Positions 8,124-39,827 of a DNA stretch of 64,000 nt are shown here, one piece after another (within the stretch, counting starts at the first letter, position 1; every line of letters begins with the position of its first letter). Where the stretch lies: contig JAUWSG010000001.1 in the NCBI GenBank assembly GCA_030610155.1, positions 24,240 through 88,239 of the forward strand, written 5' to 3'. The notes beneath the pieces are model-generated. The model ran no database searches. It was not told where the DNA came from and worked only from the letters and a program-made list of their open reading frames with translations. The translations under genes were made by a program, and so were the position numbers. Source of the stretch: Gammaproteobacteria bacterium (lineage in GTDB: Bacteria > Pseudomonadota > Gammaproteobacteria > SG8-11).

Positions 8124-8289
8124 CGATAGCTACCCCACGACAAAGGACTAACATCGAACATAACGCTAACGAATAGCATAAATTTGGTGAGAGAGTGTCT
8201 TTGTCGGGGGACGTTTATCAAAGGTACAAAGAACTGCTCTTTGGATTATTGTGTTATTAATATGAAGCGAATAAAAATGGTGTTATTGA

Positions 8290-9210
8290 ATGGTTACTGT
8301 AGCTAACAGCTTATTGACTCAGTCCGAAACATATAGTGAGTACAATGCCTCTACAATGAACGATAAACAGTTCGCAAGATGGGTAGAGCTGTTGGAGTTA
8401 CGTATTGGTGTTCGTGCCTCCGCACTGCGTAAAACATTTCTCACCAATGCCCTTGATATTCGACTACAGACCCTTGGGCTACAGAATTACAATGAGTATG
8501 ATGATTACCTGCATTCCGGTAATCAAGGTGAAATAGAGTGGTTTGAGTTAATTGATCTGCTCACCATCAGAGAAACAAGGTTCTTCAGACATAACAGCTC
8601 ACTGGAACTACTGCAGGATTATGCATTAAATAAACTTTCACAGTTTAAAAACGTTGGTCAGCAATCCCTTAAGGCCTGGAGTGTCGGTTGTGCAACAGGT
8701 GAAGAAGCCTATACCCTTGCGATTATTCTGGACCAGACCATCAAGAGTGCCGGGGATAAATCCTGTTATTTCAGTGTCATGGCCAGTGACATCAGCCACT
8801 CTGCACTAAATGCCGGAAGAAAAGGTACTTACTCCTCAAAACAATTGAATAAAATGGATGAAAAACTCATCCAGCAGCATTTTACTGCACTCGGCAATAA
8901 TCAATATCAAATTTCCGGGCAATTGAAAATCAGAGTGTGTTTTAACAAAGTGAATGTTCTGGATATCAGCCAAAAAAACATAGGACAGATGGACATTATT
9001 TTTTGCCAGAATCTACTCTATTATTTTGAGCATGACACCCGCATCAAAATATTGAACAAATTAACAGAATACCTGGCTACAGATGGCATTTTGATACTCG
9101 GGCCAGGTGACATTTTCCAGTGGGATAATCCCGACATGGCTTTAGTCAAAGGCGATAATACTTTGGCTTATCGCAAATCTGCCTCGATCAACCCAGGAAC
9201 AAATAAATGA
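8290..9210 (+). CDS. pilK: CheR-type MCP methyltransferase
   Basis: CheR N-terminal helical domain followed by a SAM-dependent methyltransferase fold (WSVGCATGEEAYTLAIIL). Overlaps chpA by 4 nt (ATGA). Confidence 0.75.
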   Translation: MVTVANSLLTQSETYSEYNASTMNDKQFARWVELLELRIGVRASALRKTFLTNALDIRLQTLGLQNYNEYDDYLHSGNQGEIEWFELIDLLTIRETRFFRHNSSLELLQDYALNKLSQFKNVGQQSLKAWSVGCATGEEAYTLAIILDQTIKSAGDKSCYFSVMASDISHSALNAGRKGTYSSKQLNKMDEKLIQQHFTALGNNQYQISGQLKIRVCFNKVNVLDISQKNIGQMDIIFCQNLLYYFEHDTRIKILNKLTEYLATDGILILGPGDIFQWDNPDMALVKGDNTLAYRKSASINPGTNK

Positions 9211-15200: not shown

Positions 15201-15413
15201 GAAATGCCACGTATGGACGGTTTTGAACTTGCAACAGCGATGAGAAATGATGATCGTCTGAAAGATATACCTATCATCATGATTACTTCCCGAACAGGGG
15301 ACAAGCATCGCGATCGAGCAACAAAAATCGGTGTGAATGCTTACCTGGGTAAACCATTCCAGGAAACTGAACTTCTTGAAAATATTGAGTCTTTACTAAA
15401 TTCAAGTGAATGA
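9207..15413 (+). CDS. chpA: Multi-Hpt hybrid histidine kinase ChpA (CheA-like) with CheW and C-terminal REC domains
   Basis: Five canonical Hpt motifs (HTLKGSG, HTLHGSA, HTLKGGA, HMLKGGA, HTLKGGA) plus an N-terminal variant and two His-less Hpt-like modules. Also a CheA dimerisation/HATPase core (GRGVGMDVV), a CheW domain and a terminal REC (VMIVDDSITVRK...DIEMPRMDGF). Confidence 0.9.
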   Translation: MNARSDQDTNIGWIKSELDETLSLARQALEVYVENPNDEAQLRFVSTHMHQIVGTLQLVELYGASLLAEETELVVNDLIEGKIKQLDDAYEVVMRAILQLPTYLDHIQQGFKDNPVNLLPILNDLRTTRGQQLLSEHAFFSPDLDVLPDAQAASAPHSTEELPLFAKKLRPLYQTGLVGLFRNKDVQKNLKLLATVIKQLENSVATDKAKQLFWVCGGIIEGLYNKGLEANISLKSLLGQVDRLIKTLIDGGEQALSEAITKELLKNLLYYVAQTEAKGARVNELKKAFNLNKILPAGDAKSAEAHEQMTGFGADVIKNVSKAIKEDMLSIKDSLDLFVRSDDSPLSDLEPMCEKLRSVADTLGLLGMGKLRKLIKEQEQVVNNIMNSDGDLDDSVIMGIASALLFVESSINDLRLANIEDDQDQDQIQDTKLLPDSEYNQLVDLTITEAKSVLARVKDAFIAFAADNTNYELLEGTPDLINEIKGAFVIVSFGRAADLINSCNKYITEKLLANKSTPEKDELDALADVISGIEYFLENFAQDSNGARKSLDIAQESLIKLGFPPEHVEPVSDDGASQTVDKIDLESLENMPAPEKAEPPVETQSEAPAEKAEISFIEEEEDEGPDEEILEIFLEEAEEEFASITEQLVNWEANLSDDNALASLRRSYHTLKGSGRIVGALEIGEFAWAIESMLNRVIDKAIEATPVLFTLMKQAKDVLPELIDQVRGKGAPASDIQTIADNAHKLTKGEDIDLDATPAAAKPADVAAVVSEQGESKAAAYDPVLVEIFTNETATHISAIRQFIAQCQENGLPCKVNNDLIRALHTLHGSAHMANVHDIADLSDQLEKYAKLVLENQTEISEDVITLLLDSVNAIEAMIGNLSEGNAAIENKDGLIDRSAALYNAELSVQKERLGGADQDTESETTIDEELIKIYLLEADEILEQTNAVISGWSQSPELTDELRRHMHTLKGGAKIANLPDIADVSDHLENVLNKFVDQQITVSEKLTETVEQAHQWLIDAFDLKRSGTPATQSLVLAKVELLKQFERLLAGFTGDETETVQQTDLSIADTELEMLGTDEELVLIFVNEAQEILSNTQEILSQLPQQLDNLKLTEDLQRAMHMLKGGARMAKITPIGDIAQNIEAILMMVIEGALQLNQNMLQSIQTATNWTAEAIESLKNNQPASANDALITELQAHTQTPPALDDGLEDVTVEEISLELDADETSGLTLDETDIAPEEKIELTDFDSSWETEESEEDSYDDDLADIFLEEAAEILHTMDDLLNQWSGDPENSEVLQEVLRALHTLKGGARMANIAPIGDLTHSIETVLEKITGGHLTATQELVAVVHTAYDWLSTALDNIRRSEPLSSVEHLIDEIEISVGLKQREEVADVVETIETTEEAQTITPETSTGDEQSDRLSAVFAVENLDEAEISDFEMAEFTEEQKAEKAEKQSSQTSKEQVKVSAELLDLLINNAGEVTIYRSRVDQQLSAIGYNLTEFDQTIARIGEQLRKFEIEAEAQILFRYESNAGADEDFDPLELDRFSNMQQLSRSLVESMGDLRSIKGLLENYTRESEILLLQQSRVSSELQEGLVRTRLVPFTNAVPRLRRIVRQTAKELDKQADFKIQGAEGEMDRTVLDRVVPALEHMLRNAIGHGIELPEDRLAANKPETGRILLNFHQEGPKIIIRIQDDGAGMNLEAIRKKAIERGLMTHDSDLTDNEVMQFVLESGFSTAEKVTQISGRGVGMDVVNTEIKQVNGTLHIDTKEGKGSIFTIQLPLTVSANQALLIETGEEQYALPLSSVDGVIRVSGKELAKLYDEDKPIYQYGGRKYGFFHLGTILGVAKPQLPEPGEKVPLILARAGDHSVALLVERIVGRQEIVIKSVGPQISTVNGISGATIMGDGRVALIIDISSLIREGMAHFAKVEVERERIEAEKAAAASAIPTVMIVDDSITVRKVTERLLKRHNYQFMTAKDGIDALDKLQDQIPDVMLLDIEMPRMDGFELATAMRNDDRLKDIPIIMITSRTGDKHRDRATKIGVNAYLGKPFQETELLENIESLLNSSE

Positions 15414-26303: not shown

Positions 26304-27260
26304 GTGGCCGATTTAAAAATTGTAATGAGTAAGGTAAAAAATAAGCTGCCAAACGGTACCGTCATCGATAACTACATCATCGAAAAAATGCTCGGTGGTG
26401 GTGGCTTCAGTATTGTTTATCTGGCCACTGATAATCATTCCAAAACAAAATCCGTCATCAAAGAATATATGCCGAGTAAAATTGCTCGTCGTGTTGATGG
26501 ACTTAAAATCGAAGCGACTGAAGATAGTCACCAGGATGCACTTGTCGCCGGTCGAAAATCCTTTTTTAAGGAAGCCAGCATCCTGGCCAAACTTCACCAC
26601 CCTAATATTGTCCACGTAACGAATTTTTTTCAGGCCAATGGCACCGTTTATATGGTGATGGATTATGAAGAAGGCGCAAATCTGCAATCCTATATAAAAT
26701 CCCGGGGCAGACTCAGTGAAACCTTTATCAGGACCGTTTTCCCACAATTGCTTACCGGACTGGATGCCATTCATTCCAGTGGCCTGCTTCATTTAGACAT
26801 CAAACCAGGCAATATTCATTTAAGACCCGGTGGCAGGCCTTTATTATTTGATTTCGGCGCGGTTCACCAGATGAGCGCCACCCGGCAGAACCAGGAAAGC
26901 CAGGTCGTCACCCCCGGATTTTCTCCGGTCGAACAATACAATATAAAAGGTTATGTCGGCCCATGGACAGATATATATGCCATCGGTGCAACCATGCGTG
27001 CCTGTATAGAAGGTGTGTCACCACCTGCTGCAAACACCCGACTGGAAAAAGACAAAATGCGGCCTGCAACCGTCGCATTCAAAAAACGTTACTCTGCACC
27101 ACTACTTGAAGCAATCGACTGGGCAATGGAAATCGATCCCGAGTTACGGCCGCAAAAAGTGAGCGATTATCTCAAAATATTTGATATTGAATATTCACTA
27201 CAAGAAGAGCCAGAAACAGCATTAGACAAATTTGTTAGCACTTTCCCGTGGGTTAAATAA
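26304..27260 (+). CDS. Hanks-type serine/threonine protein kinase (kinase domain only)
   Basis: Gly-rich loop LGGGGFSIVYLA, catalytic loop HLDIKPGNIHL, DFG and APE-like motifs. No TM or sensor domain. Confidence 0.8.
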   Translation: MADLKIVMSKVKNKLPNGTVIDNYIIEKMLGGGGFSIVYLATDNHSKTKSVIKEYMPSKIARRVDGLKIEATEDSHQDALVAGRKSFFKEASILAKLHHPNIVHVTNFFQANGTVYMVMDYEEGANLQSYIKSRGRLSETFIRTVFPQLLTGLDAIHSSGLLHLDIKPGNIHLRPGGRPLLFDFGAVHQMSATRQNQESQVVTPGFSPVEQYNIKGYVGPWTDIYAIGATMRACIEGVSPPAANTRLEKDKMRPATVAFKKRYSAPLLEAIDWAMEIDPELRPQKVSDYLKIFDIEYSLQEEPETALDKFVSTFPWVK

Positions 27261-27266
27261 GATAAA

Positions 27267-28136
27267 ATGAAATACGAAATTGGTAAAACCAACCGTCTGG
27301 GTAATCGCACAACTAATCAGGACCGGTTTGCAGTACTGGAACGTCCGGAAGCCGTTCTATTGATACTTGCAGATGGCATGGGCGGACATAAAGGAGGTGA
27401 GCTGGCTGCCAACACATTTGTTTTGAAAATGACTGAAGTGTTTAATGATACGGCTTTACCTATTAAAGATCCGCATAAATTTTTTACCTACGCATTTGAA
27501 TATGCTCATTTGTCTGTCATCGAAACCGGTAAACAACAAGAACCCCCTCTGATACCACGTAGTACGGGGGTTGCCTGTCTGGTACAAAACGGCACAGCAT
27601 GGTGGGCACATGCGGGAGATAGTCGACTCTATTTAATCAGAGAAAATAAATTATTTAGCCGAACACACGATCATTCAATTGTCGAAGAACTGATAAAAAA
27701 AGGAAAATTGACGGAAAAAGAGCGTTTGAACCATCCGAAAAGTAATCAGGTCACCCGCTGTGTCGGCGGTGTTAAAAAATCAATTAAACCTGATTTTTCA
27801 CCTGCAACCACATTACATCCTGGCGACACCCTCTTACTTTCCACCGATGGCTTATGGGGATCTTTATCAGAAGATGAAATGATAAAACACTTTAGCAATC
27901 ACTCTAAAGTGGATGTTGCATTGGACCGCATGAGTGAACACGCAGAAAACATAAGTTATCCTAACAGTGATAACATCACGGCCGTCGCGCTGCACTTGAT
28001 TTCAAATGATAACACTGTCCCTGTTACAAAAAATGCGGTACAAAATTCAAAAAACAATGATACAAAACAAGCAGACCTGGTGCTTGATGAAATCCAGCAA
28101 GCGCTTCAAAAAATTGAGAAAGACCTGAAAATATAG
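27267..28136 (+). CDS. PP2C-family Ser/Thr phosphatase
   Basis: PPM motifs (ILADGMGGHKGGELAA, STDGLWG). Lies 6 nt downstream of the kinase gene. Confidence 0.8.
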   Translation: MKYEIGKTNRLGNRTTNQDRFAVLERPEAVLLILADGMGGHKGGELAANTFVLKMTEVFNDTALPIKDPHKFFTYAFEYAHLSVIETGKQQEPPLIPRSTGVACLVQNGTAWWAHAGDSRLYLIRENKLFSRTHDHSIVEELIKKGKLTEKERLNHPKSNQVTRCVGGVKKSIKPDFSPATTLHPGDTLLLSTDGLWGSLSEDEMIKHFSNHSKVDVALDRMSEHAENISYPNSDNITAVALHLISNDNTVPVTKNAVQNSKNNDTKQADLVLDEIQQALQKIEKDLKI

Positions 28137-28151
28137 CCGGCCTTTTAATCG

Positions 28152-28826
28152 TTACAATAAACCGCGCTCGGCAAATGAAACACAATGTGCATTGCCAACA
28201 ATCACATGATCCAGCACACGTATATCCACCAGGGCCAACGCTTTTTTCAAGCGCACGGTAATCAGCTCATCCGCTTTACTGGGTTCTGCAATACCCGAAG
28301 GGTGGTTATGTGTAAAGATGACCGCTGCCGCATTAAGACGCAAAGCCTGTTTAACCACCTCGCGCGGATGAACACTGGCGCCATCTATCGTACCGCGAAA
28401 TAATTCTTCAAAACAAATGATGCCATGGCGGTTATCAAGAAACAGGCAGGCAAATACTTCATGCTCATAATCCCGTAAACGTGATGTCAGATAAGCTTGT
28501 GTTTTTTTCGGGCTGGACAATACTTCTGATTGCGCCAGCACTTCATACAAATGTCGTTTACCCATCTCCAACACGGCCTGTAATTGGGCATATTTTGCCT
28601 TGCCCAGGCCGGCGCTTGAGCAAAATGTCTCAAGATCAGTCTTTAACAGAGCGCGCAGGCTACCATGCTCATTGATCAGATCCCGCGACAGATCCACTGC
28701 TGTTCTTCCACGTACACCGGTGCGCAGGAAAATGGCCAGCAGTTCAGCATCCGATAAAGCAGATGCGCCCTGTATTAATAGCTTTTCGCGTGGCCTTTCA
28801 CTTAGAGGCCAGTCTGTAATTGGCAT
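28152..28826 (-). CDS. radC: RadC/UPF0758 JAB-domain protein
   Basis: Helix-hairpin-helix N-terminus and a JAMM-like motif (HNHPSG...SKADELIT). Confidence 0.85.
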
Positions 28827-29553
28827 GTTGGTAATATTTTAAATCCTGGAAATGACCAATATAAAGACGTGACGCTTACCTGCCACATACAACGCCTTAA
28901 CTGGCGCAAATGAACCAGGCTGCAATAAACTGAGCCAGATACAGATTCAAGACCTTCCCGGCTCGTTGATTAAATCAAAGACTTAGCACACGGTATCGCC
29001 TGCCTGTCATCCCTGCATTGACGACAAAAAGCCGTTCTATCCTCGTCTATTCGTGTTGAAAACACCCTCCCACACATAATTTCTTCGCCTTATATTCTTT
29101 GCCATTCTCAAGCTTCTACATACCATAACTTATTGTTATATAAGAATAATATACCGCTATTTTGGTTTTAAGCACATTGTTCCCAAATAAGCTGTTTTTT
29201 TGCGTCTTTTTTCTACTGATTGCATTTATTTATAATTATCAATAAAAACAACATCTTATTAATTTTTCTCTCTAAAAATCGCAACCTCCAATAATGCTCT
29301 GACGACTATTTTAATCAGTAAAAATTATATAAATAACAGCGTGTTGAGCAGTTTTTATATAAAGACAGCGCAAATTAAGCCGATTAATAGTTAATGACAC
29401 CCCTAAATCAAAAAAATGAGAACAGCGACACAGTAAAAAAAACCTGCAAAGCATTAAGCCCGAAAAATTTACGCTGAATGATCAGCTGCAAGTTAAGTAA
29501 AGAATTTATTAATTAAAAGCAAAGCAACAAAACGACAAAAGGAGCAATTCAAA

Positions 29554-30048
29554 ATGTTTTTAAAAAGACCCCAGTATCTAACGTTGTTGGTATTAGTGTT
29601 TTTATCCGCCACTGCATGGGCAAAACCCAAAGTGGAACTGACGATGACTTCAGAAAAAGAAGTCGTCGAAAAAAATAACGGCGTGGAAACTGTAAAGCGT
29701 GTCCCCGCAACTGACATCGAATCAGGTCAGGTGCTGATTTATACCATGAAGTATTCCAATACGGGTGATGAAGCCGCTACCAACGTGGTTGTCGACAATC
29801 CTATCCCCAAAGAAACCGTATACGAGCTGGACAGTGCAAAAGGTGCTGGCAGTGAAATCAAGTTTTCCATAAACGGCGGTAAAAACTACAAGCAGCCAAG
29901 CCTGTTGACCTATGAAATCAAGGGACCGGATGGCAAGCCAGTCAGAAAAAAAGCCTCTCCGGAACAGTACACGCATGTGCGCTGGATCATCGCCACAGTG
30001 CCACCGGGTGGCAGCGGGGAATTGAGTTACCGCGTCAGAGTGAAATAA
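29554..30048 (+). CDS. Secreted single-DUF11-domain protein (putative abundant structural subunit)
   Basis: Signal peptide (LLVLVFLSATAWA). DUF11 repeat signature GQVLIYTMKYSNTGDEAATNVVVDNPIPKETVY. Strong AAAGGAG RBS. Confidence 0.7.
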   Translation: MFLKRPQYLTLLVLVFLSATAWAKPKVELTMTSEKEVVEKNNGVETVKRVPATDIESGQVLIYTMKYSNTGDEAATNVVVDNPIPKETVYELDSAKGAGSEIKFSINGGKNYKQPSLLTYEIKGPDGKPVRKKASPEQYTHVRWIIATVPPGGSGELSYRVRVK

Positions 30049-30065
30049 ATTCGCAGAAATTAACC

Positions 30066-30090
30066 AGCCCCGAAGGGGCTTTTGTCGTTT
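30066..30090 (+). terminator. Rho-independent terminator/attenuator after the small DUF11 gene
   Basis: agccccgaaggggct hairpin (6-bp stem, GAA loop) followed by tttgtcgttt. Confidence 0.6.
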
Positions 30091-30302
30091 AAAAAATTAA
30101 GGAATCAAAACATGCCATCACCAAATTACGCAGCACATAAAAGAGTTCACAACCGATTAATTGTCTACGCCAGGGCGGGCCCTGAACCTCCTAATGAAGT
30201 ACGGCAACGGTCTAAATGTCAATTATCTCAGGGACCACCGCCATGAAGAATTTAAACAACGAAATACATAAACCATTAATGAAAACCATGAGGCAAGAAA
30301 TC

Positions 30303-31568
30303 ATGAAAAAGCAAAGTAACAGGCCCTCGGGCTTATTGAAAAAGGCGACAGGTGTTGCAGCAGGATTTATCCTGTTAGCCACCCTGTTGCCGGGGACTGC
30401 AGCGGCAACAACCGCAGCCAATGCAGTGATTACCAACACCGCGACCGTCAATTATGACGATACCGGCGGCAATCCTCAAACCGCATTGACCGCGTCAGTC
30501 GATGTGACGGTCAATCTGGTGACCGCTCACCCGACGCTGAGCGCGCCGGTTGATGCAACAACATCATCAGGCGTATTCCTGAATTATACGTACACTATCA
30601 TCAACAATTCCAATGGTCCGGATACGTATAATCTGACATCGGCCGCTGTACTTGGAGCAAACGTTACCAGTCAGACCGCTGTATTCCGTGATCCATCGGA
30701 TTCAATCGATATTACAGGGGTTACAATTGGTGCCACTTCTGTTGCGGTTGCCGCTCTTGCGGGTGCAACGGTCATTACAGTACCGAATGATGGTGTCTCT
30801 GATGCCTCTGTTAATGGTATCGCGGCCGGTGATGCTGTATTTATTGCTGGTACAGTAGATGTTGTTGCTTCTGTTGTTGATAATGCGACGGGTACTTCAA
30901 CGATTACATTGACGACGGGTCTCGCGGCCAATGCCTCTGTAGGTGATCAGATTGGAGGATTGACGACATTCATCCTTAAGACCACACCGATTGCTACTGT
31001 CAATGGCAGCACGTATGACATCACGATAACGGCTAATGATGGCGCCACCGCAGGTGCTGCTCCCATAGATGTAACCACCACTACGGTGCTGGTTATCAGT
31101 CTGACAGTCACCAAATATGTGGCGAATGTGACAGCGGCGGTTGTCGGTGGTACGCCATTTCCAGCGGTAGGGACACTGAATACCGGTCTGGGTGCAGGTG
31201 GCATCGTCTATTACGCCACCGGCGTTACCGGTAACCCGGGTGAGGTACTGGAATACGTCATTGTAATTTCCAATGGCGCAGGTGCAGCGACGGCATCGGA
31301 CATTGTCATCAGTGATCCGATACCAAACTTCACCTCCCTGACCAGCAATATCGCGCTGGACCCCGGCACAACTGTCTGGAGTGACGTGGCAATAACGCCC
31401 GACAATGGTGACTTCGCCGAATCAGATGGCACATCGGTGTTTATCTATGCCGGTGATGGCACTGCGGCTGGTGAAGGTGTTGACAACGTCGGTGCTCCCG
31501 GTACGGGTGGCAGGCTGGCTGCCGGTGCCACTACCATTGGCGCCTTCCAGGTAACCATTACCCCGTAA
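30303..31568 (+). CDS. Secreted Thr/Ala/Val/Gly-rich protein with two DUF11-like domains
   Basis: Start taken at MKKQSNRPSGLLKKATGVAAGFILLATLLPGTAAA (signal peptide); the ORF track begins at 30216. DUF11-like signatures FLNYTYTIINNSNGPDTYNLT and GEVLEYVIVISNGAGAATASDIVISDPIP. No Cys and almost no basic residues. Confidence 0.65.
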   Translation: MKKQSNRPSGLLKKATGVAAGFILLATLLPGTAAATTAANAVITNTATVNYDDTGGNPQTALTASVDVTVNLVTAHPTLSAPVDATTSSGVFLNYTYTIINNSNGPDTYNLTSAAVLGANVTSQTAVFRDPSDSIDITGVTIGATSVAVAALAGATVITVPNDGVSDASVNGIAAGDAVFIAGTVDVVASVVDNATGTSTITLTTGLAANASVGDQIGGLTTFILKTTPIATVNGSTYDITITANDGATAGAAPIDVTTTTVLVISLTVTKYVANVTAAVVGGTPFPAVGTLNTGLGAGGIVYYATGVTGNPGEVLEYVIVISNGAGAATASDIVISDPIPNFTSLTSNIALDPGTTVWSDVAITPDNGDFAESDGTSVFIYAGDGTAAGEGVDNVGAPGTGGRLAAGATTIGAFQVTITP

Positions 31569-31575
31569 GGTTGTC

Positions 31576-34500
31576 ATGCTGAACCTGCTGCACAACATTC
31601 AGCAAAGCCCCGGCAATGGACTTCGTTCCATTGCCGGCGCTACTGCGTGTCTGTGTGGTTTGTTCTTACAAAAACTGTTACAAGCGATGTCGATGAAAAT
31701 TCTTTCATCGACCATCGCCCCCAGTCATTTCCGACGTGAGATGACTGCGGCCGATGAAAACGCTTTTGGTTATTTATCACCTCTGGCAGGGGCCATGATG
31801 CTATCCGTCATGTTGATGCTGCCAGCAGCATCACATGCTGTCATCATTAACAACACTGTGACGGTCAATAATAATTTTGGCCCGCTTACAGCATCAACCG
31901 ATGTCGTCTCTATTTTCAATACACCATCGACGATTGAACTACTGCAATACACACCTGTATCGGTGACCGGTTCCAGCATAGTGTCTGTGCTGACAACATC
32001 CTACAGCACCACAGGATTACCAGCAGGCCCATTTGCAGCATCATCAAATCCCGTTGCCATTGATACCACTCCGATCACCGTACTGGGTAGCCTTGATTTT
32101 CTTCAGGCCACTTCCTACAAGTCAGGCGAACCCGTATTCATTCGTGTGACAGATGCGGACCAGAACAATAATCCACTGACAAGTGACACAGTTGTTGTCA
32201 CGGTCACAACGTCCAGCTCGGGTGACAGCGTCATATTACAATTGACCGAGACCGGGCCTAACACAGGTGTGTTTGTCGGCTATATCCAGTCATCGAATGC
32301 TGCCGTTGCAGTGAATGATGATGTAATTTCGGTTGGCACGAATGAAACACTGACCGTCAGTTATGTCGATGTATTTGACGGTACTGACACCAGTGCCGCC
32401 GGTATCCTGGTTGATCCCTTCGGTATACTGTTCAGTACCGCTGACGGCTCACCTGTAAATGGTGCAAGTGTGACCATGATTGATGTTGCAACGGGTCTGC
32501 CGGCAACCATTTTTGGTGACGATGGCGTGAGTATATTTCCGGCTACGGTGACATCCGGCGGTGTCGCAACAGACAGTGGTGGTAATACCTATAACTTCCC
32601 GCCAGGTAATTATCGTTTCCCGTTTGTCGTCCCTGGCAGTTATCGTCTGGATGTCATACCACCGGCTGGATTTAATGGTCCTTCAACGATACCAACGGCC
32701 ACCATTCAAGCATTACCGGGCGCACCTTTTTCAATTGTCACAGGATCACGAAGTGAAAATTTTATTGTGAACCCCGGCCCGGCATTACACATTGACTACC
32801 CGCTGGATGCTTCTCCCTCCGGTTTGTTTATTACCAAACAGGCCATGAAGAACCGCGTTGCCATTGGTGAATTCCTGCAATACAAGCTTGATGTAAGTAA
32901 CGCCGGTGCAATTGCACTGAACGGCACAAGTATTGTCGATGTTCTGCCTGTCGGTTTCCGCTACGAGCCGGGTTCAACGCGCATTGACGCTGTGACCGCA
33001 CCGGATCCGCTGGTGTCGCCTGATGGACGGACACTAACATTTACCATTGGCGCACTGACGGCCAGCAGTGCCATTGATTTACGCTATGTGGCTGCCATCA
33101 CTCCGGGGGCAAAAGAAGGTAATGCCGTCAATATGGCCAGCGGAACAGCCAATGGCGGGGTGACATCAAACATGGCCAGTGCGTCCGTACTGGTCGTTGA
33201 CGATATGATGGACTCGCGCAGCCATTTGCTGGGAAGAGTCATCGCCGGTGGCTGTGATGCCGCTTTTGGAGAAAGCGGAGCCGTCAGCCTGCAACTGCAA
33301 AGCCAGATTGCTAAAGACAGCATTGACTATACCGCAACGCTGAATGTTGAAGTGGTCACGGTGAACAATCTCTTCGTTGTGGTGAACTTACCCGGTGCAC
33401 TTGAATACGTTAATGGCAGTGCAAAACAGAACGGCGCCCGAATTGATGATCCGGTCGTGAGTGGTAGTCAACTACGATTCGCGCTTGGTGAAGCACAGCA
33501 GGGTTCTTCATCAAGAATGACATTCAGCACCCGCACCAGAGCCAACGCCTTCGGCGAGTTTTCCATTCGTGCTTATGGCGAGTTTGATGACCCGGCCGCA
33601 GTAAAAATGCAGCAACCAGGCAAACTAAGAACCCCGGTTGCAATAAACAAAATAAAAGATTTCTCACGCATATTCCGCCTGCGATTTGGCTCGCTGTCAG
33701 CCACTCTCAAACCAGACGACCTGCAAGACATTAATGAATTCGTAACAAGCCTGGAAGACCTGTCCATTCGCCGCATCCTTATTGTTGGCCATACGGACAA
33801 ACAACCTATCAGGGCAAGAAGCCGTTCAATCTTCGCAAGTAATGAAGCCCTCTCCCTGGCGCGCGCAGGCTCGGTCAGAAAACATTTACAAAAAACACTA
33901 CGGGATAAAAACATTAAAATTGACATACTGGGCATGGGGGCCAATAAACAACTGCAATATTCTGACAGAATACTGCCTGAACAGTCATCTGCTGGAAATC
34001 AACTGTTGCTCAATCGCCGGGTTGAAGTCCAGGTGGAGCTCGACCATCAATTCTCAAAGTCACGCTTTATCGTCTCGCGGCATGACAGCGGCGCCCACTC
34101 TGTCAAAACAACCGGACCCAGAGGCAAATTATCCGAGCCTGGTCTGGCAGGTGATATACCCGGCGTGCAAAACATACGTCTTTATCTGGAAGATGGCCGC
34201 TTTGTCGATACCGACGAAAACGGCATGTATCACTTTGAAGGCCTGCGGCCTGGCACCCATGTGGTCCAGCTCGACCTCACCAGCGTTCCTGAGGGTATGG
34301 AAGTATTTTCTTGTGAAAAGAACACCCGGTTTGCCGGCACACCGCATTCACAATTTGTTGATATGCAGGGTGGCACACTATGGCGGGCCGACTTTTACTT
34401 ACGTTATAAACCAACTGCAGCAAACACGGGAAATGTGGGTATTCAGCTAACCAGTGATCTGATTCAGATGACCGGCGACATGAAAAATAGCAATGTGCAA

Positions 34501-37500
34501 TACAGGGCAAAATTAACAGGAAAAGGTGTCACGATGCTGAATCGCCGCCTTGTTGTTGATCTCCCTGATGGTGCTCAATATGTTCCCCTGAGCGCCCTGT
34601 TTAATAACAAACCAGCCAGCGTTGAAATCAACGGTAACAACCAACTGATAATCAAACTAGGTGACAGTGACACACAAACATGGAAAAACGATCTGACATT
34701 CAATGTTGATCAAGTGAAACTGTCAGAAGGTGAGTTCAATGCGATTGCGGTGCTGTTGTTCGAAACGGCAAACGGAAGATCACATCAATCACCGATAGTT
34801 GAAAACATACTGGTGAGCAAAACAGAAAGCCTGCGTAAACTGATTTTCCTGGGACACTACCAGGGCCAAAAGACCAGACTTCCGCAGCAGGAAATAAAAC
34901 GACTTGAAGGTGCAATTGATTACATGCGCGGTAAAAAGATCCGGCTGATAGAAGTCATTGCACGTACCATTATGAATCCGAATGACGCGCAAAATAAAAA
35001 AATCAGGCCCGAAAACAAAGCCCTTGCAGAGGCGCGTGCGAACAAGCTTGGCACATACATAGCCCGTTCACTAGGGCTGCATAATAAGCAGGTGAAACGT
35101 ACTGGTGTGGTGTCTGAACAAACCAATGAAAAAAATACCACACTTAAAGACCCTTCAGTCCAGTTTGTCGAAATACTTGTGACCTTATCCGAAAAACAAG
35201 CGCAACAAAGAATACATATAGGCCAATCCGATAGCGGCCTGTTAACCAGCGCCGTCGTTGGCGCAACACCAACGGTGAAAAACAACAAGGCCAAACCAAT
35301 CACTGTTTACAACAACCAGGATGGCATACAGGACATCATCGAGCAACAACGCATCGGACACCGAATCATGCCTGTTAGAGCATTACTTGATTCCAGATTA
35401 AAACCTGTTCTGAAGATCGATGGCAAGACCGTTAACGAAGACCGTATCGCAATGAAAATTCCGGACAAGGAAACCGGCAAAACATTTTATAGTTATATCG
35501 GTGTAGATCTTGGCAAGGCAGGCAAGCATGTCCTGAGCTTCACAGGCATAGGGCCCTTTGGTAACGCCCGATTTAAACAAAACATCAACATTGTCCGCAC
35601 GGGTGAAGTACATGACATTCGTGTTATCGAAACAAGTGGCAATATTGCAGATGGTAAATCGCCTGTCAGAGTAGAACTACAGTTACTGGATAAGGTCGGC
35701 GAAACTATTCACACGCAAACCAATCTAAAGATTGAATCCGGCGACCTGCGACCATATGACGATAAAGACTTACTGCCCGAGTTGCGCCGGGACACTGATA
35801 TTATCAGTGTTGATGCGGATGGCTATGTCCAGTTTGCACCTGTCACAAGCAGCGGAATCTACAATATCACACTAAGCTATAATGAGCGTTCGGTCGATAT
35901 ACCGATATATATCAAACCGCATTACCGTGAATGGATCATGGTGGGTCTGGCAGAAGGCACGCTGGGACATAAAAATCTGTCTGGCAATATGCAAAACCTT
36001 GAAGCTGCCGACATCGATGATAATTATTTCCAGGACGGCCGACTTGCCTTTTTCGCAAAAGGCAAGATAAAAGGCGAGTACCTGCTAACGATTTCATTCG
36101 ACAGCGAAAGAGAAACACCGGAACAGGGTAATGGGCTATTCGGCACTATCGACCCGAACAAGTATTATACATTATACGGTGATGCCACGACTGTACGCTA
36201 TGATGCGCCGAGTACAGAAAAATTATTCCTCAGAATTGAAAGCGATAATTTTTATGCGATGTTCGGTGATTACAACACCGACCTTAGCGTCACCGAACTG
36301 GGTCGTTACAACCGAAGCCTGACAGGCCTCAAGACAGAATATCAGGATGGAAAAGTCAGTGTCACAGCATTTGCGACACAAACCGAACAAGCCTTTATCA
36401 AGGATGAACTGCGTGGTGACGGCACATCAGGCCTGTATCGTTTGTCACGTCAGAACATCGTGCTCAACAGTGAAAAAATTACCATAGAAATACGTGATCG
36501 CTTCCAGAGTCAGAACGTACTGGAATCACAACAGCTCAGAAGGTATATCGATTATACGTTTGATCCAGTTGACGGCACTGTTTATTTCAGAGAACCCATC
36601 TATAGCCGCGATGAAAACTTCAACCCGATCTATATCGTGATAGATTACGAATCTAACTCCGGTGGCGATGAATCGCTGACAGCTGGTGGCCGTGTCGCTT
36701 TCAGGCCTTCTGATTCAGGCACTGAGCTGGGTGCCACAATAATCCATGAAGGCACACCGGGTGCTGAAGCAGATTTACTGGCTGCTGACGCCACCTACAA
36801 TCTCAACAGCAATACAAACCTTAAAGCAGAAATCGCAACTACAAGACGGGAAACATCCAGCGGCGATGTTAAAGGCTCAGCTTTTATAGCCGAAGTGCTA
36901 ACCCGCACCAACAAGCTTGATAGCACGGTCTATATACGACGACAGGATGGCGAGTTTGGTCTTGGGCAACAAAAAGGTAGTGAAACCGGTACACAAAAAT
37001 TCGGCGCAGGTGGCAGTTACCAGCTCCGTAAAAACACAAGCATCAATGCTGAAGTGTTCCGTCAGGAAAACCTGGGAACAGATGCCACACGCGACGTGGT
37101 AGAAGGCAGCGTTGAATTCAGACGCAATAAGTACGACTTCTCAACCGGCCTGCGTTTTGCGAAGGACGAAGATAGTGCCGGTGGTACAAATGAGTCAAGC
37201 TTGTTGACTGGTTCCGCAAGGCGTGCATTCATGAATGACAGACTGAATCTGAACGCAAGTGCTGAAGTGTCCATTGATAATGCTGCAAACCCGGACTACC
37301 CAAATCGCTTGATAGCCGGTGCCGAGTATCAACTCAGGGCAAACACCCAATTGTTTGTCTCACAGGAATTCACCTTTGGTGAAAACCAGGACAGCAATAC
37401 AACAAGGATAGGCCTGAAAGCAACTCCGTGGCGTAATGCCACCTTGTCCACCAGCATAGAAGGGCAGCATGGTGAATATGGTCCGCGTGTATTTTCCAAT

Positions 37501-38379
37501 ATAGGCCTGACCCAGGGTGTGCAGATCAACCAGTTCCTGAGCCTTGATTTCGGTATCGAAAATGTCAACACCCTGCGTCATCCGGGTGATGTACCATTCA
37601 ATGTGAATGTACCGCCTGCTTCGGGTACAGTGGCGAATGACTTTACTGCCGTCACTATCGGCGCAAACTACACGAAACGAAGCTGGTCCTTTACATCCCG
37701 TGGAGAATGGCGTGACGGCGACCAGGAAAACAAACGCGGATTACTTATAGGTTTTTACCGTAATCATGCACCGGGACTTGGTTTTTCCTCAAGCTTGCGA
37801 CATTTTGATACTGAGCGAAGCAATGGCACGGAAAACATAACAACAAACCTGAATTTTTCATTGGCATACAGGCCTCTGGCCAGCCAATGGATTATCCTGG
37901 ATCGCATCCAATATGCCAATGAATCCGAGCGCATGGCTAACGGTACGACCAGAACCAGAAAACTGATCAATAATCTGAATGCCAATTATTTATACGACCG
38001 CAATAACCAGGTCTCATTAATGCACGGCATCAAGTATGTCATTGATAATTTTGATGGCATTGAATATAGCGGCATGACCAATCTTTTTGGGATCGAGTAT
38101 CGACATAACCTGGGTCATCGCTGGGATATAGGTACACAGGCCAGCATACGAATGTCTGATGTCGGTGATAGTCATCGTTATTCATATGGTGTTTCTGTTG
38201 GCCACACCCTTGCCAAAAATCTCTGGCTTAGCATTGGCTACAATGTTGAAGGTTTCTCCGATGATGATTTCTCCCTGGCCAACTACACGGCATCTGGCGT
38301 GTTCGCAAAAATCCGCTTCAGCTTTGACCATTTAACCGCACGACAAACCATGGCCTGGTGGGAAAAACGTAAGCAATAG
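31576..38379 (+). CDS. Giant (2267 aa) multidomain outer-membrane protein: DUF11 domain, CarboxypepD_reg-like folds, two OmpA-like domains and a C-terminal beta-barrel-like region
   Basis: DUF11 signature GEFLQYKLDVSNAGAIALNGTSIVDVLPVGF. OmpA C-like motifs (LIVGHTD...LSLARAGSV...NRRVEVQVE) and a second degenerate copy. MYHFEGLRPGTHVV resembles a carboxypeptidase-regulatory fold. The last ~900 aa show alternating hydrophobic/aromatic beta-strand patterning (LWLSIGYNVEGF, KIRFSF). The start codon is uncertain. Confidence 0.75.
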   Translation: MLNLLHNIQQSPGNGLRSIAGATACLCGLFLQKLLQAMSMKILSSTIAPSHFRREMTAADENAFGYLSPLAGAMMLSVMLMLPAASHAVIINNTVTVNNNFGPLTASTDVVSIFNTPSTIELLQYTPVSVTGSSIVSVLTTSYSTTGLPAGPFAASSNPVAIDTTPITVLGSLDFLQATSYKSGEPVFIRVTDADQNNNPLTSDTVVVTVTTSSSGDSVILQLTETGPNTGVFVGYIQSSNAAVAVNDDVISVGTNETLTVSYVDVFDGTDTSAAGILVDPFGILFSTADGSPVNGASVTMIDVATGLPATIFGDDGVSIFPATVTSGGVATDSGGNTYNFPPGNYRFPFVVPGSYRLDVIPPAGFNGPSTIPTATIQALPGAPFSIVTGSRSENFIVNPGPALHIDYPLDASPSGLFITKQAMKNRVAIGEFLQYKLDVSNAGAIALNGTSIVDVLPVGFRYEPGSTRIDAVTAPDPLVSPDGRTLTFTIGALTASSAIDLRYVAAITPGAKEGNAVNMASGTANGGVTSNMASASVLVVDDMMDSRSHLLGRVIAGGCDAAFGESGAVSLQLQSQIAKDSIDYTATLNVEVVTVNNLFVVVNLPGALEYVNGSAKQNGARIDDPVVSGSQLRFALGEAQQGSSSRMTFSTRTRANAFGEFSIRAYGEFDDPAAVKMQQPGKLRTPVAINKIKDFSRIFRLRFGSLSATLKPDDLQDINEFVTSLEDLSIRRILIVGHTDKQPIRARSRSIFASNEALSLARAGSVRKHLQKTLRDKNIKIDILGMGANKQLQYSDRILPEQSSAGNQLLLNRRVEVQVELDHQFSKSRFIVSRHDSGAHSVKTTGPRGKLSEPGLAGDIPGVQNIRLYLEDGRFVDTDENGMYHFEGLRPGTHVVQLDLTSVPEGMEVFSCEKNTRFAGTPHSQFVDMQGGTLWRADFYLRYKPTAANTGNVGIQLTSDLIQMTGDMKNSNVQYRAKLTGKGVTMLNRRLVVDLPDGAQYVPLSALFNNKPASVEINGNNQLIIKLGDSDTQTWKNDLTFNVDQVKLSEGEFNAIAVLLFETANGRSHQSPIVENILVSKTESLRKLIFLGHYQGQKTRLPQQEIKRLEGAIDYMRGKKIRLIEVIARTIMNPNDAQNKKIRPENKALAEARANKLGTYIARSLGLHNKQVKRTGVVSEQTNEKNTTLKDPSVQFVEILVTLSEKQAQQRIHIGQSDSGLLTSAVVGATPTVKNNKAKPITVYNNQDGIQDIIEQQRIGHRIMPVRALLDSRLKPVLKIDGKTVNEDRIAMKIPDKETGKTFYSYIGVDLGKAGKHVLSFTGIGPFGNARFKQNINIVRTGEVHDIRVIETSGNIADGKSPVRVELQLLDKVGETIHTQTNLKIESGDLRPYDDKDLLPELRRDTDIISVDADGYVQFAPVTSSGIYNITLSYNERSVDIPIYIKPHYREWIMVGLAEGTLGHKNLSGNMQNLEAADIDDNYFQDGRLAFFAKGKIKGEYLLTISFDSERETPEQGNGLFGTIDPNKYYTLYGDATTVRYDAPSTEKLFLRIESDNFYAMFGDYNTDLSVTELGRYNRSLTGLKTEYQDGKVSVTAFATQTEQAFIKDELRGDGTSGLYRLSRQNIVLNSEKITIEIRDRFQSQNVLESQQLRRYIDYTFDPVDGTVYFREPIYSRDENFNPIYIVIDYESNSGGDESLTAGGRVAFRPSDSGTELGATIIHEGTPGAEADLLAADATYNLNSNTNLKAEIATTRRETSSGDVKGSAFIAEVLTRTNKLDSTVYIRRQDGEFGLGQQKGSETGTQKFGAGGSYQLRKNTSINAEVFRQENLGTDATRDVVEGSVEFRRNKYDFSTGLRFAKDEDSAGGTNESSLLTGSARRAFMNDRLNLNASAEVSIDNAANPDYPNRLIAGAEYQLRANTQLFVSQEFTFGENQDSNTTRIGLKATPWRNATLSTSIEGQHGEYGPRVFSNIGLTQGVQINQFLSLDFGIENVNTLRHPGDVPFNVNVPPASGTVANDFTAVTIGANYTKRSWSFTSRGEWRDGDQENKRGLLIGFYRNHAPGLGFSSSLRHFDTERSNGTENITTNLNFSLAYRPLASQWIILDRIQYANESERMANGTTRTRKLINNLNANYLYDRNNQVSLMHGIKYVIDNFDGIEYSGMTNLFGIEYRHNLGHRWDIGTQASIRMSDVGDSHRYSYGVSVGHTLAKNLWLSIGYNVEGFSDDDFSLANYTASGVFAKIRFSFDHLTARQTMAWWEKRKQ

Positions 38380-38480
38380 ACTATCAAAGGCATATAGTAG
38401 TCATCTACATTTCTACAAAACCGATCCCTGGCGGATAAACTTAACAGAACAATGACTTGAAGTATCAAACTGGTCATATT

Positions 38481-38509
38481 TTGGTTCTGATGGCGTTGGC
38501 AGGTATAAT
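38481..38509 (+). promoter_or_regulatory. Candidate sigma70 promoter for coaBC
   Basis: TTGGTT, a 17-bp spacer, then a perfect TATAAT, about 95 nt upstream of the coaBC ATG. Confidence 0.3.
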
Positions 38510-38603
38510 GGCCAACAATGAAACTGTGGGTTTTAGCTGTTGTCAAAACGGTTCTCTAACCTGCAAAATAGAACACTCATATAGATAGGACATTCTTCAG
38601 TTA

Positions 38604-39827
38604 ATGAGTAATTTGACCAATAAACGAATCGTGCTGGGTGTGTGCGGCAGTATTGCGGCCTATAAAAGTGCAGACCTGGTTCGGCGCCTCAAAGAAATGG
38701 GTGCAGAAGTACGTGTTGTCATGACACAATCTGCGGGTGAATTTATTACCGCATTAACCTTGCAAACCCTCAGTCACAACCCGGTACATCAATATTTACT
38801 CGATTGTGATTCTGAATCCAATATGAGCCACATTGAATTGGCACGTTGGGCTGATATTGTATTAATCGCCCCCTGCAGCGCCAACTTCATGAGTAAACTG
38901 GCCCAGGGTATGGCGGACGATTTGTTATCGACCGTTTGTCTGGCGACACGGGCGCCCATCGTTTACGTGCCTGCAATGAACAACGTCATGTGGGAAAACA
39001 AAGCCACCCGGGAAAATGTAATAACACTACAAAAACGCGGCTTTGTTCGCTTTGGTCCCGCCAGCGGTGACCAGGCCTGCGGCGAGACCGGCCTTGGCCG
39101 TATGCTGGAACCTGTTCAGATAAGCAATCAACTCATTGAACTATTCCAACCTGGTTTACTGCAAGATAAAAACATCATGATCACCGCCGGTCCAACCCAG
39201 GAAGACATCGACCCGGTTCGGTTTATCAGCAATCGCAGCTCTGGCAAGATGGGCTTTGCTATTGCACAAGCCGCCAGGGAAGCTGGCGCGAACGTCACGC
39301 TTGTCTGTGGACCGGTCAAGCTGACAACACCGCAAGGTGTAAATCGCCTGGATGTAAGAACCGCGGATGAAATGAAATCTGTGGTCATGGAAAATATAAA
39401 CACCACCGATATTTTTATTTCTGCAGCCGCAGTGGCTGATTATCGACCTGAAACCGTTGCAACAAAAAAAATCAAAAAGGCAGCATCCAAACTGGATTTA
39501 AAACTGATACGTAACCCTGATATTCTGTCCCTTGTGACCAACGAACCAGTCCCACCCTTTACTGTTGGCTTCGCAGCAGAAACAGACAATGTACGGGAAA
39601 ATGCGCTGGCCAAGTTAAATTCCAAATCACTGGATATGATAGCCGCCAACGAAGTAGGTAAAGAGCAGGGTGGTTTTGACAGCAATGAAAATGCACTCAG
39701 CATATACTGGCAGAATGGCGAACAACAACTCCCCATGGCCAACAAAAATACGATCGCGCGCCAATTAATGACCATCATCACCGAAAAATTTCGGGAAAAG
39801 TCTTCAGCGAATAACGCGCTGATCTAG
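38604..39827 (+). CDS. coaBC: Bifunctional phosphopantothenoylcysteine decarboxylase/synthetase
   Basis: Flavoprotein N-domain ([14 protein letters not shown]) and a DFP C-domain ([25 protein letters not shown]). Confidence 0.9.

Follow-up and report, generated by a model that had tools for sequence, protein, structure and literature searches.

A conserved three-gene cell-envelope module between radC and coaBC, with candidate split CLIPPER domains and a giant outer-membrane barrel protein

Among the described systems closest to the three-gene block that lies between radC and coaBC in the gammaproteobacterial sequence analysed here (64,000 nucleotides of contig JAUWSG010000001.1, called the window throughout), chaperone-usher pili, type V pili and archaeal threads can be grouped as strand-complemented fibres that operate alike. 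In chaperone-usher pili (Fim, Pap), incomplete immunoglobulin (Ig)-like subunits are exported by Sec and completed by the N-terminal strand of the next subunit, giving an order of cap, connector and base, and the operon also codes for a large outer-membrane barrel. Archaeal threads (Saci_0406; PMC9715654) employ donor-strand complementation with no known chaperone or usher, apparently carry isopeptide bonds between subunits, and have a cap-like partner encoded beside the main subunit. Sortase pili (SpaA, BcpA, RrgB) consist of CnaA/CnaB-type Ig subunits with Lys-Asn/Asp isopeptide chemistry, and their subunits may join covalently. In type V secretion, the exported Ig-like array and a C-terminal outer-membrane barrel belong to one polypeptide, with the passenger outside and a linker in the pore. 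The domain family most relevant to the block, DUF11, has been renamed CLIPPER and is a CnaA-like Ig domain whose crystal structure contains a Lys715-Asn806 isopeptide bond catalysed by Asp748 (PMC12617251). Lastly, in the SnoopTag/SnoopCatcher and SpyTag/SpyCatcher pairs a CnaA/CnaB-type domain has been split into a tag strand with one reactive residue and a Catcher, a truncated domain retaining the Lys and the catalytic acid; their reconstitution yields a spontaneous covalent bond. The features listed here are those in which the block resembles these systems, with strand completion, covalent linkage and the position of the passenger as proposals in its case.

The block encodes three co-oriented proteins on the plus strand, as established from the open reading frame (ORF) listing and translation, and all three bear Sec-type signal peptides (Table 1). 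An earlier reading made from the sequence alone (the sequence-only reading) had described secreted Ig-like subunits alongside a giant outer-membrane protein, which our analysis supports, and had found no fit to classical chaperone-usher, type IV pilus, type V or curli architectures. That also stood for each of these classes, and for sortase pili, which we added. The fold is CLIPPER rather than pilin; the insert holds only genes 1 to 3 and a leader ORF, without a PapD_N or PapD_C Pfam match that would indicate a PapD-like chaperone, and no usher (PF00577; 24-strand barrel with plug) was recognised. The completion of an incomplete fold, as in chaperone-usher subunits, may have an analogue here, for which the truncated gene-1 domain and fusion proteins described below speak. 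Sortase pili depend on a sortase-made Thr-Lys bond, unlike the link proposed here, which would form spontaneously within a reconstituted domain in a diderm host; the insert contains no sortase ORF, and the C-termini of genes 1 and 2 lack LPXTG. Archaeal threads differ in being homopolymeric and microns long, with another fold, no outer-membrane barrel and a bond from the N-terminal amine to Asn between subunits n and n+2 (PMC9715654).

CLIPPER/DUF11 fibrillar adhesins (Acinetobacter silvestris B9T28_05395; PMC12617251) share the domain family, but are single polypeptides of tandem complete domains with intramolecular bonds, and have no giant C-terminal barrel, split domains or partner genes. 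Type V barrels have 12 or 16 strands, whereas gene 3 places periplasmic OmpA-like modules between passenger and barrel and is accompanied by additional subunits in trans; a 12- or 16-strand barrel with IAT_beta was not found, nor were autotransporter, POTRA or intimin Pfam domains. The Snoop and Spy pairs are laboratory constructs, while the split considered here would be natural and would serve assembly, with the reaction itself only proposed. At the domain level the system belongs to the CLIPPER and OmpA-like families, and what is supported overall is a surface fibre system of an as yet unassigned class.

We consider the chances evenly balanced that the products of this conserved operon form a cell-envelope fibre, namely a short fibrillar adhesin built from three polypeptides with split Ig-like domains. 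This proposal starts from a count of elements: gene 1 has an acceptor only, gene 2 a donor and an acceptor, and gene 3 a donor only, which leads to a linear chain 1<-2(<-2')<-3. The N-terminal hairpin of gene 2 would complete the gene-1 domain and that of gene 3 would complete the C-terminal domain of gene 2, by donor-hairpin complementation with no chaperone, giving a chain in which gene 1 is the proposed distal cap, gene 2 the proposed connector and gene 3 the proposed base. Loci with two gene-2 paralogues would form a longer chain. Judged from the sequence features described below, head-to-tail complementation of this kind is somewhat probable.

Gene 1 supplies a truncated domain. It matches PF01345 with 29.6 bits (gathering score 24.6) and TIGR01451 with 34.3 bits, and its signal peptide ends at an invariant A23. 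When gene 1 from 44 loci was aligned by hhalign to a complete CLIPPER profile, built from the internal domain of the gene-3 family, residues 15-140 corresponded to positions 5-102 of 142 with a probability of 95.6%. The protein breaks off where the Asn-bearing strand and last strand of the template start, and all homologues terminate in ...F.V.VK directly before the stop codon (...YRVRVK in the window). Without the Asn strand, gene 1 falls short of the complete nine-strand domain with a Lys, Asp/Glu, Asn triad in one chain that marks the isopeptide-forming CLIPPER subset; the Asn is found instead on the N-terminal hairpins of genes 2 and 3. It does retain K48, which is at least 90% conserved, and a candidate acid, D81, at a spacing of 33 residues that equals K715-D748 in the CLIPPER crystal structure 9IFR (PMC12617251).

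In genes 2 and 3 the putative donors follow the signal peptide immediately. Their pattern, I.N(T)A.V ... S.DV.V, resembles the missing Asn-bearing strands, and both families keep it in the form 'I.N(T)A' or 'GD.IVN.A'; mature gene 2 of the window starts TTAANAVITNTATVNYDD...TASVDVTVNLV. Gene 2 has no Pfam or NCBIfam match. Its AlphaFold2 model, made with 51 homologues (mean identity 38%), is all-beta with a predicted local distance difference test score (pLDDT) of 88.5 and a predicted template modelling score (pTM) of 0.77, and the best structural matches are isopeptide-type adhesins and pilins (SSA1632, AgI/II, PrgB, BcpA, RrgB and 9IFR), with BcpA, RrgB and SpaD as its neighbours among sortase pili. 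Across those homologues K271 and D338 never vary, and N45 is retained in at least 90% of them. All of them terminate in ...F(Q/R)VTI no more than three residues from the stop codon (...FQVTITP in the window).

The strongest evidence for putatively split domains comes from natural gene2::gene3 fusions (P0021 and P0022, 2,567-2,569 aa; P0081, 2,320 aa). In these proteins the gene-3 hairpin, after a short turn, covalently continues the last strand of a gene-2-like domain, with the junctions ...LLFQVQAN-PPGPGS-VITNTATLNFG...TRTASSLQLMQYAP in P0022 and ...LYQVNVNN-PVQGDK-IVNSAQLSS... in P0081. The loci concerned are ordered gene 1, gene 2, fusion (L104 5001-11963, encoding P0081, and L105 5001-12704, encoding P0022), and in at least three proteins the partner fused to gene 3 is a second gene-2 paralogue. 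The fusion proteins retain their own free N-terminal hairpin. Since the gene-3 hairpin already lies next to the gene-2 domain in these proteins, the fused domain cannot have the N-terminal hairpin as its partner in cis. A chimera test with PF01345 points in the same direction: gene 1 alone scored 30.4 bits over positions 5-56 of the hidden Markov model (HMM), compared with 40.7 bits over HMM positions 5-104 when the gene-2 hairpin was appended and 33.1 bits with a shuffled hairpin.

Several results weigh against strand sharing. In a profile test the real hairpin on gene 1 performed barely better (62.4) than reversed (60.4) or shuffled (58.7) versions, and the C-terminal domain of gene 2 gained nothing in Pfam score when joined to the gene-3 hairpin (15.1 vs 18.5 bits). 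The same gene-2 domain joined to gene 2's own hairpin gives a CLIPPER_2 match of 24.3 bits, the hhalign comparison of the gene-2 tail with the CLIPPER profile is ambiguous, and the donor Asn is replaced by Asp or Ser in some Geobacter-type gene-3 proteins. The gene-2 hairpin also has a pLDDT above 90 in the AlphaFold2 monomer, and may therefore pack in cis. These weak donor-strand tests, together with the compact gene-2 monomer and its confidently placed hairpin, are what one would look for if the block encoded three co-expressed but structurally independent envelope proteins, with gene 2 closing on itself and gene 3 being merely a large OmpA-family outer-membrane protein. We regard this as unlikely given the fusions, the end of gene 1 at about position 102 of 142 with no hairpin of its own, and the strict gene order and co-occurrence of the trio.

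Head-to-tail complementation would also rebuild a Lys/Asp/Asn triad at each junction, from K48/D81 of gene 1 with N45 of gene 2, and from K271/D338 of gene 2 with N93 of gene 3, and this may lock the junction covalently as in SnoopTag/SnoopCatcher. Isopeptide bonds are absent from many CLIPPER domains (PMC12617251), a further point for independently folding proteins, and from residue conservation we hold the Lys-Asn lock to be possible rather than probable. If the mechanism were true, the split isopeptide domain would be a natural equivalent of SpyTag/SnoopTag technology, and the family could be a source of new orthogonal self-ligating protein pairs.

The roles proposed above differ from those of the sequence-only reading, which took gene 1 as the major subunit and gene 2 as a minor or tip subunit on an outer-membrane platform. 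A pilus in which gene 1 polymerises and gene 3 acts as a usher-like platform would suit the high conservation of gene 1, the most conserved of the three proteins (about 50% identical between Geobacter and the window), as well as its Shine-Dalgarno sequence, the best of the three, and the terminator-like hairpin behind it, an arrangement common for major pilin genes. A similar hairpin occurs in L001 (a contig considered below), L005 and L004, but as a general feature of the module it was rejected, with a terminator passing strict criteria found behind gene 1 in just 4 of the 84 loci (0.08 in shuffles). As a truncated acceptor with no donor strand, gene 1 could not chain to itself, which fits a cap and leaves gene 2 as connector and gene 3 as base. 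No chaperone is present, the gene-3 barrel is no nearer to PapC/FimD than to unrelated barrels, and the gene2::gene3 fusions imply a 1:1 stoichiometry. The assignment of gene 1 as a polymerising major subunit is thus very improbable.

Gene 3 would anchor the chain. Besides its donor hairpin it contains a complete CLIPPER/DUF11 domain, part of an N-terminal array of beta domains, and OmpA-like domains, which would tie the base to peptidoglycan. PF00691 is matched in two stretches (54.9 bits against a gathering score of 27.2) with an NRRV motif in the translation, LLNRRVEVQVEL, and the first OmpA-like domain also matches TssL, MotB and PomB-type models. Gene-3 homologues bear PF13620 in addition to PF17210. 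The AlphaFold2 model of the C-terminal part (pLDDT 73.6, pTM 0.55) shows Ig-like domains followed by 32 consecutive long strands, and no specific structural relative of the barrel was found. Sequence searches of the PDB with the three proteins and family profiles returned only Pizza designer propellers, a weak PomB match and GhpA at an E-value of 0.57. The most conserved part of the family, which precedes the barrel strands, could be a plug or contribute extra strands to the barrel. A single-chain barrel of at least 32 strands would rank among the largest known.

The oversized barrel probably lets folded Ig domains, or the chain as a whole, reach the surface in an autotransporter-like topology. 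In this arrangement the N-terminal array would lie outside and the polypeptide would pass once through the pore, followed by the OmpA-like and Ig modules in the periplasm and then by the barrel wall. Surface exposure through the barrel, as judged from the models, falls a little short of an even chance. The OmpA-like domains must be periplasmic, and their position between the N-terminal array and the barrel fits a fully periplasmic structure as well, a point against the surface model. The main rival is accordingly a chain that assembles but stays in the periplasm, as a tether or scaffold between outer membrane and peptidoglycan that is functionally like OmpA, SlpA or OmpM. We think this rather unlikely: a barrel of at least 32 strands is unnecessary for an anchor, CLIPPER and CnaA-like domains typically occur in extracellular stalks (PMC12617251), and about ten or more Ig-size domains in series would, by inference, exceed the width of the periplasm.

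Taken to its full extent, the surface model would amount to a categorically new self-ligating pathway, widespread among Gram-negative bacteria, with split-Catcher subunits that join in the absence of chaperone, usher and sortase, an isopeptide lock, a base with an export pore of at least 32 strands and a peptidoglycan anchor, and downstream subunits gated by the RAGP leader described below, which would stand for a new family of very short arrest peptides working wholly within the exit tunnel; this combination we consider doubtful. If the mechanism were true, it would mean that a diderm bacterium can assemble a fibre or adhesin with no chaperone-usher, sortase, type IV or type V machinery, and the gene-3 barrel would be a new model for the transit of folded proteins across the outer membrane.

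The trio of genes 1, 2 and 3 is a conserved module that occurs in many genomic contexts from Gammaproteobacteria to Geobacter. Full-length homologues of gene 3 number in the hundreds (about 1,900-2,500 aa) and are found in Geobacter sp. AOG1, Geomobilimonas luticola, Desulfuromonadales, Desulfurivibrionaceae and many gammaproteobacterial metagenome-assembled genomes (MAGs). The order of a CLIPPER protein of about 160 aa, a protein of about 400 aa with no Pfam match and an OmpA-family giant of about 2000 aa recurs in unrelated neighbourhoods, and a metagenome scan with the gene-1 profile yielded 80 further loci. The barrel region (residues 1500-2267) alone retrieved 1,226 cluster representatives at 50% identity with E<=1e-30 and 2,477 with E<=1e-10, nearly all of them the C-termini of proteins of 1,600-2,900 aa. 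If the proposed mechanism holds, environmental Proteobacteria and Desulfobacterota would commonly possess this assembly route, with more than 1,200 such clusters for the barrel alone. Many loci (about 25, with gaps of 1,300-1,800 nt) have two gene-2 paralogues before gene 3, and the number of connector modules per cassette therefore varies. Among 85 loci no further gene was consistently linked, and chaperone, peptidase or sortase partners were not found. A literature search found no published description of the three-gene system. Its components are of known kinds; undescribed are the system as an operon and the families of the giant barrel and of the RAGP leader.

Some individual loci call for comment. 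A 1642-aa CLIPPER/DUF7933 repeat protein encoded 3' of gene 3 in Geobacter sp. AOG1 (L002 15929-20857) was examined as a core part and set aside, as it has no N-terminal donor motif; it is probably an independent adhesin or optional cargo. Response regulators of OmpR or sigma-54 type lie near the cassette, upstream, in 11 loci (including L030, L039, L044, L049, L060, L064, L087 and L099, upstream of gene 1, and L005 20001-21422), with none in the window. Homologues P0005, P0009, P0011, P0130, P0141 and P0155 (GCA_975961635.1; L004) carry the label 'Kaarinaea lacus', a name assigned to the Nostocales cyanobacteria in NCBI taxonomy. Their contigs bear proteobacterial-type neighbours (SecB, GpsA, a sigma-54 regulator), and the cassette contigs probably derive from a co-cultured or contaminating bacterium.

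A conserved ORF of 44 codons between genes 1 and 2 was overlooked in the sequence-only reading. It has its own AGGA Shine-Dalgarno sequence and is exactly 44 codons long in nine loci from three sub-lineages, all of which share RAGP(E/D)PP and a QGPPP-stop ending, with the gene-2 ATG about 56 nt further on. Of 83 loci, 24 have a forward-frame RAGP in the 450 nt that follow gene 1, compared with a mean of 0.97 and a maximum of 4 in shuffles, and the background in the ORFs of these loci is about one RAGP per 38,000 residues; no other ORF of at least 100 aa in the window contains the motif. Every synonymous codon is used for all four residues, indicating that selection acts on the RAGP peptide and not on the GC-rich palindrome present in some versions. 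In leader families that are otherwise unrelated the motif lies 16-20 residues after the Met; Geobacter and a few others have a leader whose frame continues into gene 2. The leader of the window belongs to no Pfam family, has RAGP at residues 21-24, and contains no hydrophobic, signal or transmembrane segment.

SecM and YwcI have RAGP as their arrest core, a motif that proteomes avoid (PMC12992588, PMC10987492). RAPP-like motifs are also strongly avoided, and occur in upstream ORFs (uORFs) of sec, yidC, TonB-receptor and copper genes (PMC12992588, PMC10987492, PMC10951299). The leader resembles the SecM, ApdP and YwcI arrest peptides in being an upstream ORF with its own Shine-Dalgarno sequence, placed just before genes for secreted proteins, in which an R-A-G-P core is followed by a Pro-rich stretch. 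It differs in its length of 44 codons, in having no homology beyond the motif and in preceding genes other than Sec or YidC components. By its sequence it falls among the RAPP-like arrest peptides. A proteome-wide uORF survey considered only RAPP and RGPP and left out ORFs before 'hypothetical' genes (PMC12992588), and an earlier search did use RAGP as a query but solely upstream of sec and yidC genes (PMC10987492); by design, neither would capture the RAGP leaders of gene 2.

The ORF is thus a candidate ribosome-arrest leader for gene 2 and perhaps for gene 3, which has a related element of its own. The reading frame of gene 3 is open for 60-90 codons before the signal-peptide core (in the window it starts NIQQSPGNGLRSIAGATACL), and the pre-signal frame is open and its motif conserved in 13 of 13 loci. 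Distant homologues have ..PG(L/I)RAG.PA.. in the form MP..L...LC..LPG(L/I)RAG.PAG, and the extension was also traced in L004, L005, L033, L039, L057, L058, L060, L061 and L083 and in P0054, P0062, P0107 and P0384. A conserved Met just before the signal peptide (M56, nt 31741) is a possible alternative start. The core of this extension resembles the gene-2 RAGP leader, and gene 1 has no RAG-type element. The uORF of gene 2 and the in-frame RAG(P)-type extension of gene 3 probably pause ribosomes and tune the output of these genes relative to gene 1.

Such pauses would differ from those that monitor Sec or YidC. The leader lacks the signal or transmembrane segment of a monitoring substrate, its spacer is short, and the downstream gene encodes a structural envelope protein. 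As a nascent chain of 24 residues without a signal sequence lies inside the exit tunnel, release by pulling is unlikely, and control by elongation factor P (EF-P) or proline supply, or a constitutive pause, seems more likely. Against a regulatory role, the leader is absent from about two thirds of the loci, and most RAPP-like motifs without a suitable N-terminal context do not stall ribosomes (PMC10987492). A search for an RNA switch at the leader and the gene-2 ribosome-binding site gave a single-sequence fold no better than shuffles (z +1.24), and RNAalifold detected almost no covariation and no conserved RNA structure. These observations, and the palindromic nature of the commonest coding form, AGGGCCGGCCCT, which gives matches in reverse frames too, would suit a small protein with some other role or a constraint on the nucleic acid. 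We rate that reading a minority one, rather unlikely in view of the four residues kept with all synonymous codons while the palindrome is not, the distance of 16-20 residues from the Met in unrelated leader families, the 24-fold enrichment over shuffles, and the conserved length, Shine-Dalgarno sequence and GPPP-stop. As a candidate arrest leader, RAGP extends the SecM-type motifs to structural envelope genes, and a 44-residue leader unlikely to be released by pulling raises the question of what relieves such arrests. In two loci (L039 3121-4707 and L060 2825-3934) RAGP is found in much longer ORFs with R(A/S)RDPDG and RAAPLP/RAGPLP repeats, which may be duplicated leader elements.

The position of the block had been read as an insertion between genes that are normally adjacent, and this was checked by synteny. 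Species-representative genomes were scanned with CoaBC; none was a close relative, the best match being 56% identical, and the five nearest were used. Three of these five distant gammaproteobacterial relatives have radC and coaBC side by side in divergent orientation, separated by 65-197 bp (about 197 bp in a Lamellibrachia endosymbiont, 185 bp in Pseudohongiella and 65 bp in a Legionellales MAG). One of the five has no radC near coaBC, and a Woeseiaceae MAG (L009 726-5186) carries a different insert of 4.5 kb that encodes a prolyl-oligopeptidase-family S9 peptidase and PD40/TolB-like propeller proteins. The radC|coaBC intergenic site thus appears to take up accessory genes repeatedly. In the window the start codons are 9,778 bp apart in the ORF listing, bearing out the reported distance of about 9.7 kb with a 727-bp AT-rich region and three co-oriented genes. 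The reported absence of integrase, transposase, tRNA and clear flanking repeats was likewise upheld: the ORF listing shows no integrase or transposase in the insert, a scan found no tRNA in the window, and no repeat at the insert ends exceeds chance. A faint 18-mer likeness between the two ends that had been pointed out did not emerge as a repeat, and many chance pairs are stronger.

The same three genes also lie between radC and coaBC on an environmental contig (L001, an ENA metagenome contig), where protein identity with the window is 91% for RadC, 87% for gene 1, 83% for gene 2, 93% for gene 3 and 91% for CoaBC. As the insert has diverged to a similar degree as its flanks, the block is as old as the split between the two organisms; the insert is old and vertically inherited in this lineage. 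The proposed comparison of base composition showed a deviation, though a mild one. The insert has a GC content of 0.472 against 0.439 in the flanks, and GC at third codon positions (GC3) is 0.475-0.53 in insert genes against 0.36-0.49 in flank genes. The higher GC is owed in part to the Thr/Ala/Gly/Val-rich proteins. Among the three genes, GC3 is highest in gene 1 (0.53), whose codon usage also deviates most, with a mean difference in relative synonymous codon usage (RSCU) from flank genes of 0.55, where typical flank genes show 0.18-0.24; this could reflect high expression or merely its short length.

A recently acquired mobile genomic island would account for the broken adjacency that is intact in three of five relatives, the slightly raised GC and GC3, the different neighbourhoods of the cassette elsewhere, and the other insert at the same site in another lineage. 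It is nevertheless improbable, given the lack of an integrase, transposase, tRNA or flanking repeat, the identities of the insert proteins (93, 87 and 83% for genes 3, 1 and 2) beside 91% for radC and coaBC, and a protein composition that largely accounts for the GC. The insert is instead an accessory block at a site that has been used more than once. The claim of an insertion thus held as far as the block breaks a common adjacency, and gave way where it implied a one-off island, the module being old and present in many unrelated contexts and phyla.

Table 1. Features of the radC-coaBC interval in the window (nucleotide positions are those of the window; residues are those of the encoded protein).
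Feature	Nucleotides	Strand	Residues	Remarks
radC	28152-28826	-		Left flank, divergent from insert; Pfam RadC 2.2e-45, UPF0758_N, NCBIfam NF000642 2.8e-82
Non-coding region, AT-rich	28827-29553	.		727 bp upstream of gene 1; GC 0.349
Gene 1	29554-30048	+		164-aa secreted protein, single CLIPPER/DUF11-like domain
Terminator-like GC hairpin and T-run	30066-30090	+		Just 3' of gene 1; AGCCCCGAAGGGGCT TTTGTCGTTT; lineage-specific
Leader ORF, 44 codons	30112-30246	+		MPSPNYAAHKRVHNRLIVYARAGPEPPNEVRQRSKCQLSQGPPP then stop; RAGP codons 30172-30183; GPPP-stop end
Gene 2	30303-31568	+		421-aa secreted protein, Thr/Ala/Gly/Val-rich
Gene 2, N-terminal beta-hairpin		+	36-75	Invariant-like N45
Gene 2, middle Ig-like domain		+		Between hairpin and C-terminal domain
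Gene 2, C-terminal CLIPPER-like domain		+	~262-421	Invariant K271, D338; stops before last hairpin
Gene 3	31576-38379	+		2267 aa, giant outer-membrane protein
Gene 3, pre-signal extension and signal peptide	31576-31839	+		Conserved GNGLRSIAG; cleavage predicted after A88
Gene 3, mature N-terminal beta-hairpin	31840-31950	+		VIINNTVTVNNN...TASTDVVSI, N93; proposed donor for gene-2 C-terminal domain
Gene 3, complete CLIPPER/DUF11 domain	32827-33183	+	418-536	PF01345 HMM 3-112 of 114, 28.3 bits
Gene 3, OmpA-like peptidoglycan-binding domain 1	33685-34059	+	704-828	PF00691 54.9 bits; NRRVEV motif
Gene 3, SdrD_B/CarboxypepD_reg-like beta-sandwich	34159-34305	+		Weak: PF17210 22.3 bits, under cut-off
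Gene 3, OmpA-like domain 2, degenerate	34882-35145	+		PF00691 18.9 bits, E 0.0019, excised segment
Gene 3, Ig-like beta-sandwich domains before barrel	35347-35955	+	~1258-1460	AlphaFold2 model residues 78-280, pLDDT ~80-90
Gene 3, most conserved family part	36040-36624	+	~1489-1683	Beta-rich; 50-sequence alignment; AlphaFold2 strands at model residues 309-491
Gene 3, C-terminal outer-membrane beta-barrel	36625-38319	+	~1684-2248	32 consecutive long strands
coaBC	38604-39827	+		Right flank; TIGR00521 8.4e-142, Pfam Flavoprotein and DFP

The promoter of gene 1 presumably lies within the 727-bp region, which is about 78% identical between the window and L001 (a two-row alignment with a mean column identity of 89%). 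A scan upstream of gene 1 gave sigma-70-like matches at chance level and no sigma-54 consensus, and the window has no Rfam match. The gene-1 ATG is preceded by AAGGAG, a strong Shine-Dalgarno sequence. The longest ORF of gene 2 begins at 30216, while the 421-aa form from the ATG at 30303 is the one annotated publicly (P0121, 100% identical). A GAGG Shine-Dalgarno sequence of its own precedes this form and is kept in relatives.

Beyond the interval, a eukaryotic-type Ser/Thr protein kinase and a PP2C phosphatase adjoin radC in the window (26304-28136) and also in L001 (4775-6581). Further upstream, the window contains a Pil-Chp-type chemosensory cluster (6093-15413) with a PilJ-like methyl-accepting chemotaxis protein, CheR and a 2068-aa ChpA-like kinase that carries five Hpt domains, one CheW domain and one receiver domain.

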